Shown here piece after piece: positions 7,530-61,597 of a DNA stretch of 64,000 nt. Positions within the stretch are counted from its first letter, which is position 1, and the number at the start of each line of letters is the position of its first letter. The notes under the pieces are model-generated. The model had not been told where the DNA came from. It saw nothing but the letters and a program-made list of their open reading frames with translations, and did not search any database. The DNA comes from Escherichia coli (GTDB taxonomy: Bacteria > Pseudomonadota > Gammaproteobacteria > Enterobacterales > Enterobacteriaceae): assembly GCF_003334765.1 (NCBI RefSeq), contig NZ_QOWT01000016.1; one strand, given 5' to 3'. The position numbers and the translations under genes are program-made.

Positions 7530-7650
<121 letters not shown>

Positions 7651-41393: not shown

Positions 41394-42818
41394 TTACTGC
41401 ATTAACAGGTAGATGGTGCTGTCGCCGCGCTGAATGTTGAGTGCCAGCACAGACGGTTTGCTGTCGAGAACTTTACGCAGTTCAGCGATGTTTTTCACTG
41501 CCTGCTGGTTCGCGCCAATAATCACATCACCTTTCTTCAGGCCGATCTGCGCAGCCGGAGTGCCCGTTTTCACGTTGTTCACTACCACGCCCTGATCTTT
41601 GCCTTTGTTGCTCATCTCAGCGCCTTCAATGCCGTTGAAGATGGAGCTGGAATCAACCTGATTCTGGCTGCTCTGCTGCAGTTCCAGGTTCACGTTAACC
41701 TGCTTACCGTCGCGCAGTAAGCCCAGGGTCAGTTTGCTGCCTACCGGCATAGTACCCACCTGAGCACGCAGTGCGGCAAAGCTGCTGATCGGCTTACCGT
41801 TCAGTGAGGTGATCACATCACCCGCTTTAATGCCCGCTTTTGCAGCGGAGGAATTAGGCAGAACCTGGCTTACGAAAGCACCGCGCTGGGCGTCAACTTT
41901 CATCGCTTTCGCCAGTTCGGAGTTCAGCTCAGTCCCCATAATACCCAGCTCACCGCGTTTCACCTGGCCGTATTCCACCATCTGCGAGGTCAGGTTTTTC
42001 ACCATGTTACTCGGGATAGCAAAACCGATACCGATGTTGCCGCCGTCCGGTGCGAGGATCGCGGTGTTGATACCGATCAGTTCGCCGTTCAGGTTAACCA
42101 GCGCACCACCGGAGTTACCACGGTTGATCGCTGCATCGGTCTGGATGAAGTTTTCGTAGTTTTCGGCATTCAGGCCGCTACGCCCCAGCGCAGAGACAAT
42201 CCCGGAAGTTACCGTCTCGCCCAGACCAAACGGGTTACCAATCGCTACGGTGTAATCACCCACGCGCAGTGCATCAGAATCCGCCATCTTAATTGCGGTC
42301 AGGTTTTTCGGGTTCTGGATTTGGATCAGCGCGATATCAGAGCGCGGATCTTTGCCAACCATCTTCGCGTCGAACTTACGGCCATCGCTCAGTTGAACTT
42401 TAATGACCGTCGCGTTATCAACAACGTGGTTGTTGGTGACGACATAGCCTTTATCGGCATCAATGATGACGCCGGAACCCAGCGCCATGAATTTCTGTTG
42501 CTGGCCGCCACCATTACCGCCCTGGCCACCCTGGCAGAACGGAGAGCTCTGGAACGGAGAACCTTCCTGGCAGAACGGAGAATCATCACCGAAGAACTGC
42601 TGGAAATTACGCGGCATACGCGGCGTATTAACGGTTGTGCTACCTTCTACGTTAATGCTGACCACTGAAGGCATCACCTTTTCGAGCATCGGTGCAAGGC
42701 TTGGCATCTGCTGGGCTGTCGTTGCTGAAGAAGTCTCAGCCGCCGTTGCAGAGAGCGGAGATAACGCCAAACCTAAACTCAGAGCCAGTGCACTCAGTGC
42801 TAATGTGGTTTTTTTCAT
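41394..42818 (-). CDS. degP: periplasmic serine endoprotease/chaperone DegP (HtrA)
   Basis: 474-aa ORF with signal peptide, trypsin-like catalytic Ser (GNSGGAL) and two PDZ domains; recognised DegP. Confidence 0.97.
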   Translation of the reverse strand: MKKTTLALSALALSLGLALSPLSATAAETSSATTAQQMPSLAPMLEKVMPSVVSINVEGSTTVNTPRMPRNFQQFFGDDSPFCQEGSPFQSSPFCQGGQGGNGGGQQQKFMALGSGVIIDADKGYVVTNNHVVDNATVIKVQLSDGRKFDAKMVGKDPRSDIALIQIQNPKNLTAIKMADSDALRVGDYTVAIGNPFGLGETVTSGIVSALGRSGLNAENYENFIQTDAAINRGNSGGALVNLNGELIGINTAILAPDGGNIGIGFAIPSNMVKNLTSQMVEYGQVKRGELGIMGTELNSELAKAMKVDAQRGAFVSQVLPNSSAAKAGIKAGDVITSLNGKPISSFAALRAQVGTMPVGSKLTLGLLRDGKQVNVNLELQQSSQNQVDSSSIFNGIEGAEMSNKGKDQGVVVNNVKTGTPAAQIGLKKGDVIIGANQQAVKNIAELRKVLDSKPSVLALNIQRGDSTIYLLMQ

Positions 42819-42864
42819 GTATTTCAGTCTCGATTAACAGATAACGCAAAATTGCTGTGTTCTT

Positions 42865-56437: not shown

Positions 56438-58972
56438 TTAATTACTACCAAACATATCCTTGATCCAACCGGCTACACCGTCGCTGTCTTTCTGCTCTTG
56501 CTGAGCAGGTTGCTGTTGCGGCTGTTGCTGCGGCTGAGAAGACTGATCAAACGGATTGCCTGACGGCTGCTGCTGCATCTCGCTCTGCTGGCACAGCGAT
56601 TGCGGATCGCTGGTCCAGACCGGCAAGATACGCATGCCACCGCTGCAAACAAAGTTGCCGTCGTAGTCCACGCCCATATCTGCAATATCTTCTGGCGGAA
56701 CAAGATTCAGCGGCGTTGGCGTCTGGTTAGCCAGATAACGCTGATAAATCGACATTGCCCCGCTGGCACCATACAGTTTGGTCGGCTGGTTGTTATCACG
56801 GCCGACCCAGGTGATGGTCACCGTGCTGCCGTCAATGCCCGCAAACCAGGTATCTACGTTATTGTTGGTAGTCCCTGTTTTCCCTGCCAGATGCAGGTTC
56901 GGGTATTTCGCCCCAAGCTGACGACCCGTACCGCGTTGTACCACCTGCTGCATGGTCCATAGTGTCAGATACGCCGCCTGCGCCGGAACAGCGCGTTCCG
57001 CCTGCGGGAAGCTCTGATACAGCACTTTGCCATCTTCCGCGATTACCGAACGCAGCGCAGAAAGCGGTGCACGGTTACCACCGCTGGCGATGGTCTGGAA
57101 TGCCTGCGCCACTTCGATTGGCGTTAAGTTCAACGCCCCCAGCAGCATTGCCGGAACCGGATGCAACTGATCTTTCGGTACGCCCAGTTTAATCCAGGTC
57201 TCCGTAACCGCAGGCAGCCCCAGCGCCATCCCCAGATTTACCGTCGGCACGTTCATCGAACGGGTCAACGCATCCACCAGCATCACTCTGCCGCTTTCGC
57301 TATAACGACGGTCATCATTCTGCGGTGACCAGACCTGGCCATTCGGCTGACGCAGCGCAATTGGCGCATCCGCAATCCACGTATTCAGACGATAGATTTT
57401 CGGCTGGCTTAAGGCCGTCAGATAAGTCGCTGGTTTTGCAAGGGAACCAATCGAACGACGCGCCTGCATCGCACGGTTGTAGCCCGCAAACTGCGGCTCA
57501 GAACCTCCGACCATCGCACGAACTTCACCACTAAAGCGGTCGACGACCACAATCGCAGTTTCAAGATCGCTCAACTTACGCTGTTTCTTCAGTGCCGGAA
57601 TGCCTTCCACGGCGGCTTTTTCTGCCGCGTCCTGGGCCACCGAGTCAAAGGTAGTGAAGATCTTCACGCCGGAGAGATCTTTTACCTTATCGCCCAGTTT
57701 TGCCTGCAGCTCCTGACGCACCAGTTGCATAAAGGCTGGCTGAGGAGAGATCACCCCACCGCGCGGCTGAACCCCCAGCGGACGGGCACTCAACATGTCA
57801 TAGAGTTCTTGATCAATAATCTGTTGCTGTTGCAGCAGACGCAGCACCAGATTACGTCGCTCCAGCGCCAGTTTTGGGTTACGCCACGGGTTGTAGATGG
57901 ACGCCCCTTTCACCATACCGACTAACAGCGCCTGCTGGTCGAGGCTTAGCTCTTCTACCGGGCGACCAAAGTAATACAAGCTTGCCAGCGGGAAGCCGCG
58001 GATTTCGTTGTCGCCGCTCTGACCGAGATACACCTCGTTCATATACAGCTCAAGAATACGGTCTTTGCTGTAACGCGCGTCCATGATCAGCGCCATGTAA
58101 GCTTCGTTCGCTTTACGCCAGTAAGAACGCTCGCTGGAGAGGAACAGGTTTTTCACCAGCTGTTGCGTCAGCGTACTCGCACCCTGTACCGTGCGTCCGG
58201 CGGTCAGGTTTGCCAGCACCGCACGTCCGATTGAGTAGAGACTGATTCCATCATGCTCGTAAAAATGACGGTCTTCTGTCGCCAGCAAAGTATCCACCAG
58301 CAAATCCGGGAAACCACTGCGCGGCACAAACAGACGCTGCTCACCGTTTGGCGAAGAGATCATGGTGATCAGACGCGGATCAAGACGGAAGAAACCGAAC
58401 TGACGGTTGTTCTCCATATTGACGATCGTCGCCAGATGATCGCCATCAAAGGTCAGACGCGCGCGCACCTGTCCTTCTTTACTGTCCGGGAAATCAAACG
58501 GACGGCGAATCATCTCAATGCTGTTGGCCTGCACGGTAAATTCGCCAGGACGGGTCATTTTCGACACCTGACGATACTGGGTCGCCTCCAGCAGCTTCAC
58601 CATCTCGTTCTTGCTGATGGTCATGTCTGGCTCAAGATTGACCATTCGGCCATAAACTGCCGCAGGCAGTTGCCAGACCTTGCCATCAATACGGCTACGA
58701 ATTTTTTGATCGAGATAAACGCCGTAAATGGCGATCAGCACGGCAAAAACGATAGCCAGTTTTAGCAGTAGCCATAGCCAGCCGCGTTTGCCACGAGGCT
58801 TACGCCCTTTGCCTTTGCCCTTACCTTTGCGCGGCATCGGTTCTTCATCCTCATAGTCATCATAATCGTCGTAATCATCGTCATCTTCGTAACGACGACG
58901 GCTTACCTTTTGTTTGACCGGACGCGTCGGTTTCCCTTTGCGTCCAATTGGCTCGCGGTCATTCCCGGCCAT
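56438..58972 (-). CDS. mrcB: penicillin-binding protein 1B (bifunctional glycosyltransferase/transpeptidase)
   Basis: 844-aa product from the ATG preceded by GGAGA ([15 protein letters not shown]); the ORF-track TTG start is 5 codons upstream; internal Met46 is the known start of a shorter isoform. Confidence 0.95.
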
Positions 58973-59039
58973 GCTTTTTCTCCGCAATATTCAGGCGCAA
59001 AAGCCCGATTTTCTGTTCTTCTGTTACAAGACAGAAGAA

Positions 59040-59165
59040 GATATCTCTCAAAATTTGTGCTCGATCGGTCCCCTCTCCCTTGAGGGAGAGGGTTAGGGTG
59101 AGGGTGAACGTGCGCGCTGATGCCCTCACCCCGGCCCTCTCCCACAGGGAGAGGGAGAAAACCAA
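59040..59165. repeat. GC-rich triple-hairpin intergenic repeat (boxC-like)
   Basis: Three palindromes: ccctctcccTTGAgggagaggg, gggtgaggg...ccctcaccc and ccctctcccACAgggagaggg, in the mrcB-hrpB spacer; family assignment is from memory. Confidence 0.6.
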
Positions 59166-59167
59166 CC

Positions 59168-61597
59168 TTACGAATACTTTTTCGTCCGTCGCGTCGGTGC
59201 AGTATTTGCCGGGTCGTCCGGCCAGACATGTTTGGGATAACGCCCTTTCATCTCTTTTTGCACCTCACGGTACGCTCCTTTCCAGAAGGCGCTCAAATCT
59301 CGTGTGATTTGTAATGGCCTTTGGGCAGGTGAAAGCAACTCCAGCACCAGCGGCACGCGCCCCTGGGCGATCGTCGGATTGGTGGCCTCGCCAAACATCT
59401 CTTGCATTCTCACCGCCAGCGCGGGCGGGTTATCTTCATGATAACGAATGGCGATCCGGCTTCCCGTCGGCACAGTGTAATGCGCAGGCAATTCACTATC
59501 CAGACGTTGCTGCATTCCCCAATCAAGTAATCCGCGTAGTGCCTGATAAATGTCGAGTGATTTCAGGCCGCGTAGTGAATGTACGCCAGTCATATGTGGC
59601 AGCAGCCACGTTTCCAGCGCTGCCAATAAACTTTCATCATCAACCGCTGGCCAGTCATATTCCGGCAACCACTTTGCGGCGCATAACAAACGCAAGCGTA
59701 GCTGTTCCGCTTCCGCCGTCCAGTTGAGCACGCTTAAACCTTTATCACGGATGCCATTAAGCATCGCCTGATGCAACTCGTCTTCTGACGGTTTCGCCAG
59801 CGGCTGCACTTTCACCGTCAACTGACCGATTTGTAGCCGACGCCAGGCTTTCAGCGTACCTTGCGCGTCATCCCACTCCACAGTGTCAGACTGCTGTACC
59901 AGCTGCGGGCAGCGTTGTACTAACTCATCAATATCGACCAGCAGCGCCAGTAAAATCCGCGCATCCGGCGAGGCGCTGCCCTGCAATAATAACGGTGCGA
60001 TCAACCATTCGTGGCGGCTTAGCGCGTCGTTGGCATCGAGCATCGCTCCCATGCCGTTTGCCAGTTGATAGCGTCCATCTTGCCCACGGCGACGAGCAAT
60101 GCGATCGGCAAACGCCCCGGCAAGTAGCGGCGCGATAAGCGAACTGTCTGCCTCACCGCCACGTACGTTTAAGCGTTTTAACAGTTGCTGACTACGTTGC
60201 TGCCAGGCTGGTTGATTGCGCGAAAACGCCACGCCCAGGTCACTATTGCCCATCCGTGGCGGCTCTTCGAGAATGGCGGCAATTTTTGCCGCGGTAGCAG
60301 CTTCGTCGTCGTTCTTCGCGCTAACCAGCATTGCCGCTAAACGCGGATCGTTACCCAGCGCTGCCATTTTTTGCCCTTGCGCACTAAGCCGTTCACCCTC
60401 CAGTGCCCCCAGCATTTGTAACAGACGTTTCGCGGCCAGTAGATTCACTACTGGCGGTTGATCCAGCCAGCTCATCTGCGCCGGATCGCTGCATCCCCAT
60501 TGCAGTAATTCCATCAGCAAACCGGAAAGATCGCTTTGTAAGATCTCCGGTTCACTTTGCGCCGCGGCGCGTTCTGCTTGTTCTTTGGCGATTAAATGCA
60601 GGCTGATACCCGGCTCCAGACGCCCGGCGCGCCCGGCACGCTGCGTCATGGATGCCTGGCTAACGCGTTGAGTAATCAGTCGCGTAAGCCCCGTGCGCGG
60701 ATCAAAACGCGCCACACGCTCCTGGGCACAATCCACCACCAGACGAATACCTTCAATGGTTAAACTGGTTTCAGCAATATTGGTCGCCAGCACCACTTTG
60801 CGCATCCCTTGCGGTGCCGGGAGGATCGCTTTTCGCTGATCGTTCAGCGACAACGCGCCATACAGCGGGCAGAGCAATACATCACTGCCGATGCGCGAAG
60901 CCAGTTGTTCCTGCACACGCTGAATTTCTCCGACGCCAGGTAAAAATAACAGTAATGATCCGCTTTCCTGACGCAGCATTTCAGCGGTGGCTACCGCAAC
61001 GGCATCGTCAAAACGCTGATGCGCGGGCAGCGGTAAATAACGGCGTTCAACCGGAAACGAGCGCCCTTCTGAGATGACGACAGGCGCTTCTGGCAGCATT
61101 TGCTGCAAGCGGTCGTTGTCCAGGGTAGCCGACATAATCAGCAGTTTAAGGTCATCACGCAGACCTTGTTGCACATCGAGTAACAGCGCCAACGCCAAAT
61201 CCGCCTGCAAGCTGCGCTCATGAAATTCATCAAGGATCACCAGTCCAACACCGCTCAGTTCCGGGTCACGCTGGATCATGCGCGTCAGCACGCCTTCGGT
61301 AACCACTTCCAGGCGGGTATTCGGCCCGACGCAGTTTTGCGCACGCATCCGGTAGCCAACGGTATCGCCTGGCTTTTCGTTAAGCAGCTCCGCCAGCCGT
61401 TGCGCGACGTTACGCGCCGCCAGACGACGCGGCTCCAGCAGGATAATTTTCCCGTTAATGCCGGGATGCGCCAGCAGTTGCAGCGGCAGCCAGGTTGATT
61501 TCCCGGCCCCGGTCGGCGCACTTAATAATACCTGCGGCGCACAATCGAGAGCGGTAAGTAATTCAGGTAAGACGGCAGCAACGGGCAACGACGACAC
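59168..61597 (-). CDS. hrpB: ATP-dependent DEAH-box RNA helicase HrpB
   Basis: 809-aa product from a GTG start (VSSLPVAAVLPELL) with Walker A GAGKST and DEFHER motif; the ORF-track start is 15 codons upstream. Confidence 0.9.
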   Translation of the reverse strand: MSSLPVAAVLPELLTALDCAPQVLLSAPTGAGKSTWLPLQLLAHPGINGKIILLEPRRLAARNVAQRLAELLNEKPGDTVGYRMRAQNCVGPNTRLEVVTEGVLTRMIQRDPELSGVGLVILDEFHERSLQADLALALLLDVQQGLRDDLKLLIMSATLDNDRLQQMLPEAPVVISEGRSFPVERRYLPLPAHQRFDDAVAVATAEMLRQESGSLLLFLPGVGEIQRVQEQLASRIGSDVLLCPLYGALSLNDQRKAILPAPQGMRKVVLATNIAETSLTIEGIRLVVDCAQERVARFDPRTGLTRLITQRVSQASMTQRAGRAGRLEPGISLHLIAKEQAERAAAQSEPEILQSDLSGLLMELLQWGCSDPAQMSWLDQPPVVNLLAAKRLLQMLGALEGERLSAQGQKMAALGNDPRLAAMLVSAKNDDEAATAAKIAAILEEPPRMGNSDLGVAFSRNQPAWQQRSQQLLKRLNVRGGEADSSLIAPLLAGAFADRIARRRGQDGRYQLANGMGAMLDANDALSRHEWLIAPLLLQGSASPDARILLALLVDIDELVQRCPQLVQQSDTVEWDDAQGTLKAWRRLQIGQLTVKVQPLAKPSEDELHQAMLNGIRDKGLSVLNWTAEAEQLRLRLLCAAKWLPEYDWPAVDDESLLAALETWLLPHMTGVHSLRGLKSLDIYQALRGLLDWGMQQRLDSELPAHYTVPTGSRIAIRYHEDNPPALAVRMQEMFGEATNPTIAQGRVPLVLELLSPAQRPLQITRDLSAFWKGAYREVQKEMKGRYPKHVWPDDPANTAPTRRTKKYS

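Follow-up and report, generated by a model that had tools for sequence, protein, structure and literature searches.

A known pair of inverted BoxC repeats between hrpB and mrcB of Escherichia coli and the association of its family with YcjD-like DUF559 genes

The genes hrpB and mrcB lie one after the other in the 64-kb stretch of Escherichia coli DNA analysed here (the window), separated by a spacer of 195 nt. Inspection of the letters revealed six blocks of the form CCCTCWCCC/GGGWGAGGG packed into positions 59071-59155 of this spacer. CCCTCWCCC matches nowhere else in the 64 kb, for which 0.42 matches would be expected by chance, and none of 100 shuffled sequences contained six or more. RefSeq annotates no coding sequence over the element, and the open reading frames that span it, which a preliminary description made from the sequence alone had called spurious, are mechanical ORF calls only. 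The features of the locus, together with four loci discussed further below, are collected in Table 1.

Table 1. Features of the hrpB-mrcB locus and of related loci (window positions unless another locus is named)
Feature	Position	Strand	Sequence, basis or remark
mrcB	56438-58972	-	flanking gene
Predicted constitutive sigma-70 promoter of mrcB	59023..59051	-	TTGAGA-17-TGTAAC; published promoter located in the window
5' flank of type A unit	59057..59070	+	GTGCTCGATCGGTC; family consensus approximately G.GCTCGGTCAGTC
BoxC unit, type A	59071..59104	+	CCCTCTCCC-TTGA-GGGAGAGGG-TTA-GGGTGAGGG
Block CCCTCTCCC	59071-79		sequence
Block GGGAGAGGG	59084-92		sequence
Block GGGTGAGGG	59096-104		sequence
Spacer between both units, 18 nt	59105..59122	none	TGAACGTGCGCGCTGATG
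BoxC unit, type B	59123..59155	-	CCCTCTCCC-TGT-GGGAGAGGG-CCG-GGGTGAGGG
Block CCCTCACCC	59123-31		sequence
Block CCCTCTCCC	59135-43		sequence
Block GGGAGAGGG	59147-55		sequence
T-rich 5' flank of type B unit	59156..59167	-	GGTTGGTTTTCT; abuts the hrpB stop codon
hrpB stop codon	59168..59170	-	TAA with the element, TGA in element-free alleles
hrpB	59168-61597	-	flanking gene
naRNA4	7568-7644	-	Rfam
CssrA	32908-33017	-	Rfam
t44	33856-33942	-	Rfam
HtrA 5' UTR thermometer	42813-42858	-	Rfam
BoxC-bracketed DUF559 locus L139	K-12 1351204-1351760		
BoxC-bracketed DUF559 locus L086	3142-3843		
BoxC-bracketed DUF559 locus L037	1625-2115		
BoxC-bracketed DUF559 locus L126	5500-6024		

The same description had seen in 59040-59165 a triple hairpin, that is, three palindromes built from shared arms. 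A repeat search recovered the three local palindromes together with one 27-nt outer inverted repeat, bearing out the palindromes and their common arms, but the six blocks are better parsed as two inverted three-block units, each composed of a C-block followed by two G-blocks, on either side of an 18-nt spacer. The middle palindrome is then the third blocks of both units facing one another. The extent shifts as well: the repeat proper reaches from about 59057 to 59167, and 59040-59051 are bases of the predicted mrcB promoter and lie outside it. Both units have the form CCCTC(T/G)CCC, a loop of 3-6 nt, GGG(A/T)GAGGG, a loop of 3 nt and GGG(T/A)GAGGG. A type A unit, with its TTA loop at 59093-95, is paired with a type B unit on the opposite strand, with its CCG loop at minus-strand 59134-32, an arrangement also found in four other K-12 pairs. 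The 5' flank of the type A unit is kept in other K-12 type A units; of this flank, CTCGGTCAGTC also occurs in copies of Pseudomonas sp. dw_612 and CTCGGTC in a Rickettsiales metagenome-assembled genome (MAG). On the other side, TTTTC(T/C) stands directly 5' of every K-12 type B unit examined, and a T-rich stretch ahead of HPG2 motifs was also remarked by Kaplan et al. 2016 (PMC5100583).

RNA folding, which had been suggested as a check and which was computed with Watson-Crick pairs only, turns the element into one strong nested hairpin on either strand (minus strand, -75.8 kcal/mol, z -7.4; plus strand, -69.6 kcal/mol, z -6.1). Folded as DNA under the same restriction, the two strands reach -32.5 and -33.7 kcal/mol (z approximately -5). 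When either unit is folded by itself, a 9-bp hairpin results in which the third block takes no part. Positions 59084-59104, within the type A unit, also fit a quadruplex motif of four G3N3 repeats.

Comparison with published catalogues identified both units. Positions 59071-59105 (35 nt) are letter-for-letter TMECO no. 2 (CCCTCTCCCTTGAGGGAGAGGGTTAGGGTGAGGGT), and minus-strand 59155-59122 (34 nt) is letter-for-letter TMECO no. 1 (CCCTCTCCCTGTGGGAGAGGGCCGGGGTGAGGGC). Holder et al. 2015 (PMC4666352) list TMECO no. 1 at K-12 164547-164580 and no. 2 at 164631-164597 in their Table 1, count 23 copies in MG1655, and equate the TMECO motifs both with BoxC, as the repeats were called in the 1990s, and with the PIT elements of Hoyne and Maher (2000). 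In the nomenclature of Kaplan et al. 2016 (PMC5100583), who call the repeats HPGQ (HPG1/HPG2) and place HPGQ 5 and HPGQ 6 between hrpB and mrcB, the type A unit corresponds to HPGQ 6 and the type B unit to HPGQ 5. The distance to the hrpB stop codon is the same as in the catalogued K-12 copies. Judged by its sequence, the hrpB-mrcB element, a pair of inverted BoxC repeats, was known before and represents no new family. It is a full member of BoxC/PIT/TMECO/HPGQ, being intergenic, multi-copy and three-block, with type A and type B units on opposite strands, and differs from three other K-12 BoxC pairs, which have spacers of 28-29 nt that align with its own, in a spacer shortened by an 11-nt deletion.

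The earlier suggestion of a dispersed, BoxC-like repeat agrees both with the identity of the units to TMECO no. 1 and no. 2 and with the copy number. A query of 53 nt, consisting of one unit and its flank, was run against 5,426 complete E. coli genomes and found copies in 5,399 of them, with a median of 12 and a maximum of 25 per genome; the element is thus neither single-copy nor without a known family. The E. coli copies listed have no annotated feature beneath them and almost all are chromosomal. Four E. coli pairs (hrpB-mrcB, fepB-entC, ygfF-gcvP and alx-sstT) align over approximately 125 nt with 80% column identity, and the alignment takes in the T-rich flank before type B, the conserved spacer and a GAC.GA.CGAGCAC flank after type A. 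The window pair is one copy of this composite repeat of about 125 nt, which occurs several times in E. coli.

Of the two kinds of database that had been proposed as a check, the published repeat catalogues supplied the family, and Rfam returned no match at the locus at its gathering threshold. Matches to Rfam below threshold at the locus were eukaryotic miRNA hairpins, which are due to chance, and a weak whalefall-1. The latter scores 17 bits on each unit (59069-59105, plus strand; 59122-59157, minus strand) against a gathering score of 37, and its consensus has a CUCUCC/GGAGAG hairpin followed by AGGGUGAGG at a distance of 24 nt instead of 3, so that the resemblance may be fortuitous or mark a distant variant. 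Gathering-level matches at other places in the window are naRNA4, CssrA, t44 and the HtrA 5' UTR thermometer (Table 1).

The locus is occupied by several alleles. The full element is present in 3,423 of the 5,426 genomes and partial forms in approximately 113, and a 298-nt allele without the element is carried by approximately 1,890 (35%). Allele classes, read from an alignment of representative E. coli alleles, include one longer by 12 nt (one extra block period), one shorter by 12 nt (one block lost), and two in which the pair has independently collapsed to a lone CCCTCTCCC-loop-GGGAGAGGG hairpin, one with the left loop and one with the right. Strain 536 (B2) shows a like collapse at alx-sstT, where one hairpin is left, and the phenomenon is the "palindrome effect" of Holder et al. 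2015 (PMC4666352). In the element-free allele approximately 114 nt, beginning inside the hrpB stop codon, are replaced by approximately 12 nt. The alleles seen here alter the repeat alone and leave the neighbouring genes unchanged. The element is dispensable and structurally unstable at hrpB-mrcB. These observations are consistent with the lack of a dedicated host function at this locus, where the pair may be a selfish or neutral repeat, and the combination of 9-nt blocks, a 12-nt period and a palindrome would give rise to slipped-strand insertions, deletions and collapse to a single hairpin.

Neither a target-site duplication nor a clean insertion junction was found at hrpB-mrcB, alx-sstT or adk-hemH. 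The filled and alternative alleles of adk-hemH (approximately 160 versus 56 nt) differ by segment replacement. In K-12, a single BoxC unit lies downstream of adk inside the segment of approximately 160 nt, which also holds a hairpin resembling a terminator and GAACAGGCCCGCAC, with which the pair spacer begins; O157:H7 and ZH193 have instead a 56-nt segment with a different hairpin. The alx-sstT spacer of E. coli H8 represents a third allele class (618 versus 401 nt), where an unrelated insert replaces the BoxC pair. Outside E. coli, Salmonella (L134 2671-2730) and Citrobacter freundii (L135 1000-1045) have another palindrome in the corresponding slot, immediately behind the hrpB stop codon (GCCAGATAAGGCG...CGCCATCCGGC and GCCTGATAAGCG...CGCCATCAGGC), which we take to be REP-like. 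One slot has therefore accepted different repeats in different genera, and since the outgroups carry other sequence in it, they do not polarise the "empty" hrpB-mrcB allele. The Klebsiella hrpB-mrcB locus is not syntenic.

A constitutive sigma-70 promoter of mrcB was reported by Shimada et al. 2014 (PMC3946193). Its predicted position in the window is 5 nt from the flank of the repeat and overlaps the span originally assigned to the element. The promoter sequence TTGAGAGAT is conserved in Salmonella, Citrobacter and the repeat-free E. coli alleles, and the longer stretch AAATTGAGAGAT(T/A)TCTTCTTCTGTC downstream of the slot, which contains the promoter, is conserved in Salmonella and Citrobacter. 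A promoter scan, the rules of which exclude the -10 element of the published mrcB promoter, found nothing. At 59016-59039 lies a perfect 9-bp inverted repeat (TTCTTCTGT / ACAGAAGAA), partly conserved in Salmonella and Citrobacter, whose loop holds the predicted mrcB -10 element (TGTAAC, minus strand); it could be an operator or a 5' leader structure.

The position and stability of the hairpin raise the question of whether it serves as a functional 3' end of the hrpB transcript and shields mrcB from read-through, be it by causing termination or pausing or by blocking 3' exonucleases in the manner of REP. The hairpin begins 13 nt past the hrpB stop codon and is transcribed in the hrpB sense, its predicted RNA fold on that strand is the more stable of the two given above, and 58800-59400 holds no other terminator-like site. 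A terminator consensus scan of that interval returned 0 sites, however, the element included, and no U-run directly follows the stem, where the hrpB-strand sequence is GACCGAUCGAGCAC; the preliminary description had rightly denied that the element is a simple terminator, and we conclude that it is neither a terminator nor a gene. Moreover, about 35% of E. coli genomes do without the element and others keep one short hairpin, copies of the family are unbiased in orientation and position relative to genes (Holder et al., PMC4666352), and PIT elements had neither terminator nor promoter activity in the tests summarised by the same authors. A role at the hrpB 3' end is therefore unlikely.

A further reading treats the element as a switch that, by adopting a non-B DNA form (intrastrand triplex, G-quadruplex, hairpin or cruciform), regulates the mrcB promoter or local replication. 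Each strand contains a motif of four G3N3 repeats and a perfect purine-motif third block, triplex formation by type A and type B oligonucleotides (CD, NMR) and an ion-dependent switch between G-quadruplex and hairpin have been published in vitro, and the flank of the repeat ends 5 nt from the predicted -35 element. Against this, published in vivo DMS footprinting detected no triplex, published work found no link to gene class or distance, and alleles and species without the element still have an intact, conserved promoter, making such a switch quite improbable. Given the dispensability of the element, the missing U-run and the published null tests, we rate both the terminator or stabiliser and the non-B switch as minor rivals. 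Maintenance of the element for selectable local genomic variability ("adaptive instability", Holder et al.) appears least probable of all, for although many alleles exist at hrpB-mrcB and other BoxC loci and variability around TMECO loci exceeds that of controls (Holder et al. 2015, PMC4666352), equal variability would be expected of a selfish repeat undergoing gain, loss and erosion, and the hrpB-mrcB variants change the repeat only and not the neighbouring genes.

The distribution of the family extends far beyond E. coli. When 100,044 species genomes were scanned for the exact pattern, at least 120 loci matched, to which E. coli copies fetched one by one were added. The matches listed include Myxococcota, Dehalococcoidia, Methylomirabilota, Rickettsiales and an unclassified MAG as well as Pseudomonas, Methylophaga, Contendobacter, Sideroxyarcus and Luteimonas, and a single Boseaceae strain accounts for more than 40 of the loci among them. 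Across phyla, the three blocks are nearly invariant in the matches listed, while the loops vary, and in several genomes the motif is embedded in longer conserved repeats. Thus in the MAG GL140_5 it occurs in genome-specific repeats of two subfamilies, each with approximately 40 nt of conserved 5' flank and approximately 22 nt of conserved 3' flank, and in Boseaceae BT-24-1 an extra stem, gcgcgac...gtcgcgcgac, surrounds it.

Copies in Pseudomonas belong to the same two types as those of E. coli: type A is marked by the flank CTCGGTCAGTC, by CCCTCGCCCC as block 1 and by a TTA loop, and type B by a CTG loop and a flank that is T-rich or C-rich. The gene-less Pseudomonas composites have their third blocks pointing outward, the opposite of the E. 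coli pair geometry. In Pseudomonas sp. dw_612 these composites measure approximately 160-190 nt (for example, L120 4548-4738 and 7140-7329) and consist of outward A and B units with about 40 nt of conserved flank from each in between; some (L125, L126, L128) are tandemly multiplied. The 843-nt interval between the units of another locus of this strain (L115), considered as a possible site of a transposase, holds degenerate tandem repeat copies only and no gene. A C4 antisense RNA (RF01695, 54.8 bits) near a BoxC composite of the same strain (L111 1709-1801) is probably prophage-related and unrelated to the repeat.

All open reading frames within 2.5 kb of BoxC units were clustered for the loci among the matches listed. 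Besides ABC ATPases, which formed the largest cluster common to genomes and were dismissed as ubiquitous, a protein of approximately 115 amino acids was the only family present in at least three genomes among these matches. Its match in NCBIfam is NF007294 ("DUF559 domain-containing protein"), to which E. coli YcjD belongs. Two BoxC units immediately enclose the YcjD-like gene in Boseaceae, Methylophaga and Pseudomonas. Four YcjD-like proteins are 41-49% identical to one another and invariant at the D, E-x-D and Q-H positions, and YcjD matches PDB 3hrl, an "endonuclease-like protein", with E = 1e-27. PMC3424549 places DUF559 in the PD-(D/E)xK superfamily, in one group with Vsr and a homing endonuclease of a group I intron. 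PADLOC gave no meaningful defence-system assignment for the YcjD-like proteins.

The K-12 ycjD locus itself bears traces of the same arrangement. The ycjD open reading frame ends within a degenerate inverted unit (...tcaCCCTCTCCCTGA...) that has a type A flank and is followed by a duplicated fragment of the ycjD 3' end and then by TMECO no. 9; a 95%-identical homologue has a complete unit at its stop codon. The end of the pair spacer by the type A unit (..GGCCTGTTC before CCCTCACCC; in the window, ..GCACGTTCA before CCCTCACCC) resembles the 3' end of ycjD (..CGCCTGTCA before CCCTCACCC). An empty site for the ycjD cassette was sought in E. coli, but the alternative allele in other lineages carries the eefRABCD operon in place of ycjD, which points to replacement and not to an empty site. 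According to PMC12817139, ycjD is confined to phylogroups A, B1 and C and two sequence types, and eef-carrying lineages, including ST11 of phylogroup E, are described as lacking ycjD; in the two additional sequence types the ycjD open reading frame is 12 nt longer, the length of one BoxC block period. The hrpB-mrcB pair is present in O157:H7, and in the sampled O157:H7 genomes the match to the K-12 ycjD locus is confined to its fabI end. With the pair present in O157:H7 and ycjD absent from eef lineages, the co-occurrence of BoxC and ycjD in present-day E. coli is not strict.

An independent test of the association used 80 metagenomic loci (L140-L219) picked solely by peptide patterns from the YcjD-like catalytic core; their ranking used K-12 YcjD, the last four residues of which are BoxC-encoded, a small possible bias. 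Strict three-block units numbered 46 in the 71,144 bp within 300 nt of the DUF559 gene and 3 in the 235,871 bp elsewhere, corresponding to a density approximately 51-fold higher near the gene, and the 9-mer blocks were approximately 29-fold denser there (389 versus 45). With at least two blocks per window of approximately 200 nt required, BoxC blocks were found on both sides of the gene in 44 of the 80 loci, on one side only in 14 and on neither in 22, compared with 8 of 340 control windows (2.4%).

The orientation of the units was equally regular. Eighteen upstream units lay on the gene strand and 18 downstream units on the opposite strand, as against 4 and 6 in the other orientations, indicating that the third blocks are turned towards the gene; the downstream unit lies across its stop codon or directly against it. 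Clustered at 70% identity, the proteins of the 44 two-sided loci form 39 groups, and their median pairwise identity is 52%; the association is therefore not the property of one lineage. The order unit(+), interior, unit(-) is common to the nuclease loci and the gene-less E. coli pairs, including that of the window. The link between BoxC and DUF559 is statistically strong and apparently unreported; no report tying DUF559 or ycjD to BoxC was found in the open-access literature.

Taken with the allelic series, these data favour, as a probable account of the locus, a known BoxC pair that is dispensable, has no dedicated host function here, is prone to slippage and belongs to a family tied to YcjD-like nucleases. 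A further step can be offered only tentatively: BoxC may be the cognate DNA of YcjD-like DUF559 nucleases, the gene-less units being non-autonomous derivatives or homing sites, and the spread of the family across phyla and its instability being dependent on the nuclease. The action of a YcjD nuclease on BoxC is putative. The full-length cassette would consist of a unit(+), the nuclease gene and a unit(-). Gene-less pairs such as that of the window could be internally deleted, non-autonomous derivatives of a BoxC-DUF559-BoxC cassette or, alternatively, unoccupied targets, with the nuclease gene homing into the spacer of pre-existing pairs. More speculatively, pairing of blocks 1 and 3, which is possible in the common CCCTCGCCC variant, would include a G.T mismatch, the lesion recognised by Vsr-type nucleases.

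Several known systems resemble such an arrangement in part. Like BoxC, REP/REPIN sequences are short, GC-rich palindromes of intergenic regions and are often arranged as inverted pairs forming a long hairpin; together with RAYT they present the same picture of repeats that flank a small gene in inverted orientation alongside many gene-less dispersed copies. BoxC has no sequence similarity to REP, however, and in place of RAYT, a Y1/HUH transposase, its gene encodes a Vsr-like PD-(D/E)xK nuclease (DUF559), for which mobilisation is putative. MITEs share with the pair terminal inverted repeats, a short spacer, the geometry of a longer gene-carrying form and polymorphic presence, but BoxC shows neither a target-site duplication nor a DDE transposase, and its alleles differ by segment replacement. 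Free-standing PD-(D/E)xK homing endonuclease genes (Vsr / DUF559 / I-Bth0305I) offer another parallel, as a small nuclease gene inside a repeated DNA context would fit homing; such genes are usually not bounded by structured inverted repeats, and BoxC-DUF559 has no known cleavage site, intron or intein context.

The element itself adds nothing new to the catalogue of BoxC repeats, and the value of the present analysis lies in the allelic series at hrpB-mrcB and in the link to DUF559. An origin and a mechanism for BoxC/PIT/TMECO have been lacking since the 1990s, the literature being concerned with in vitro structures and a correlation with variability. With relatives that are bracketed by BoxC in dozens of unrelated bacteria, ycjD is a concrete candidate for the missing trans-acting factor. 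If this proposal is true, BoxC and YcjD-like proteins would constitute a second repeat-plus-enzyme system beside REP/RAYT and give DUF559 a function, and the "instability" of BoxC would be the activity and decay of a selfish element.
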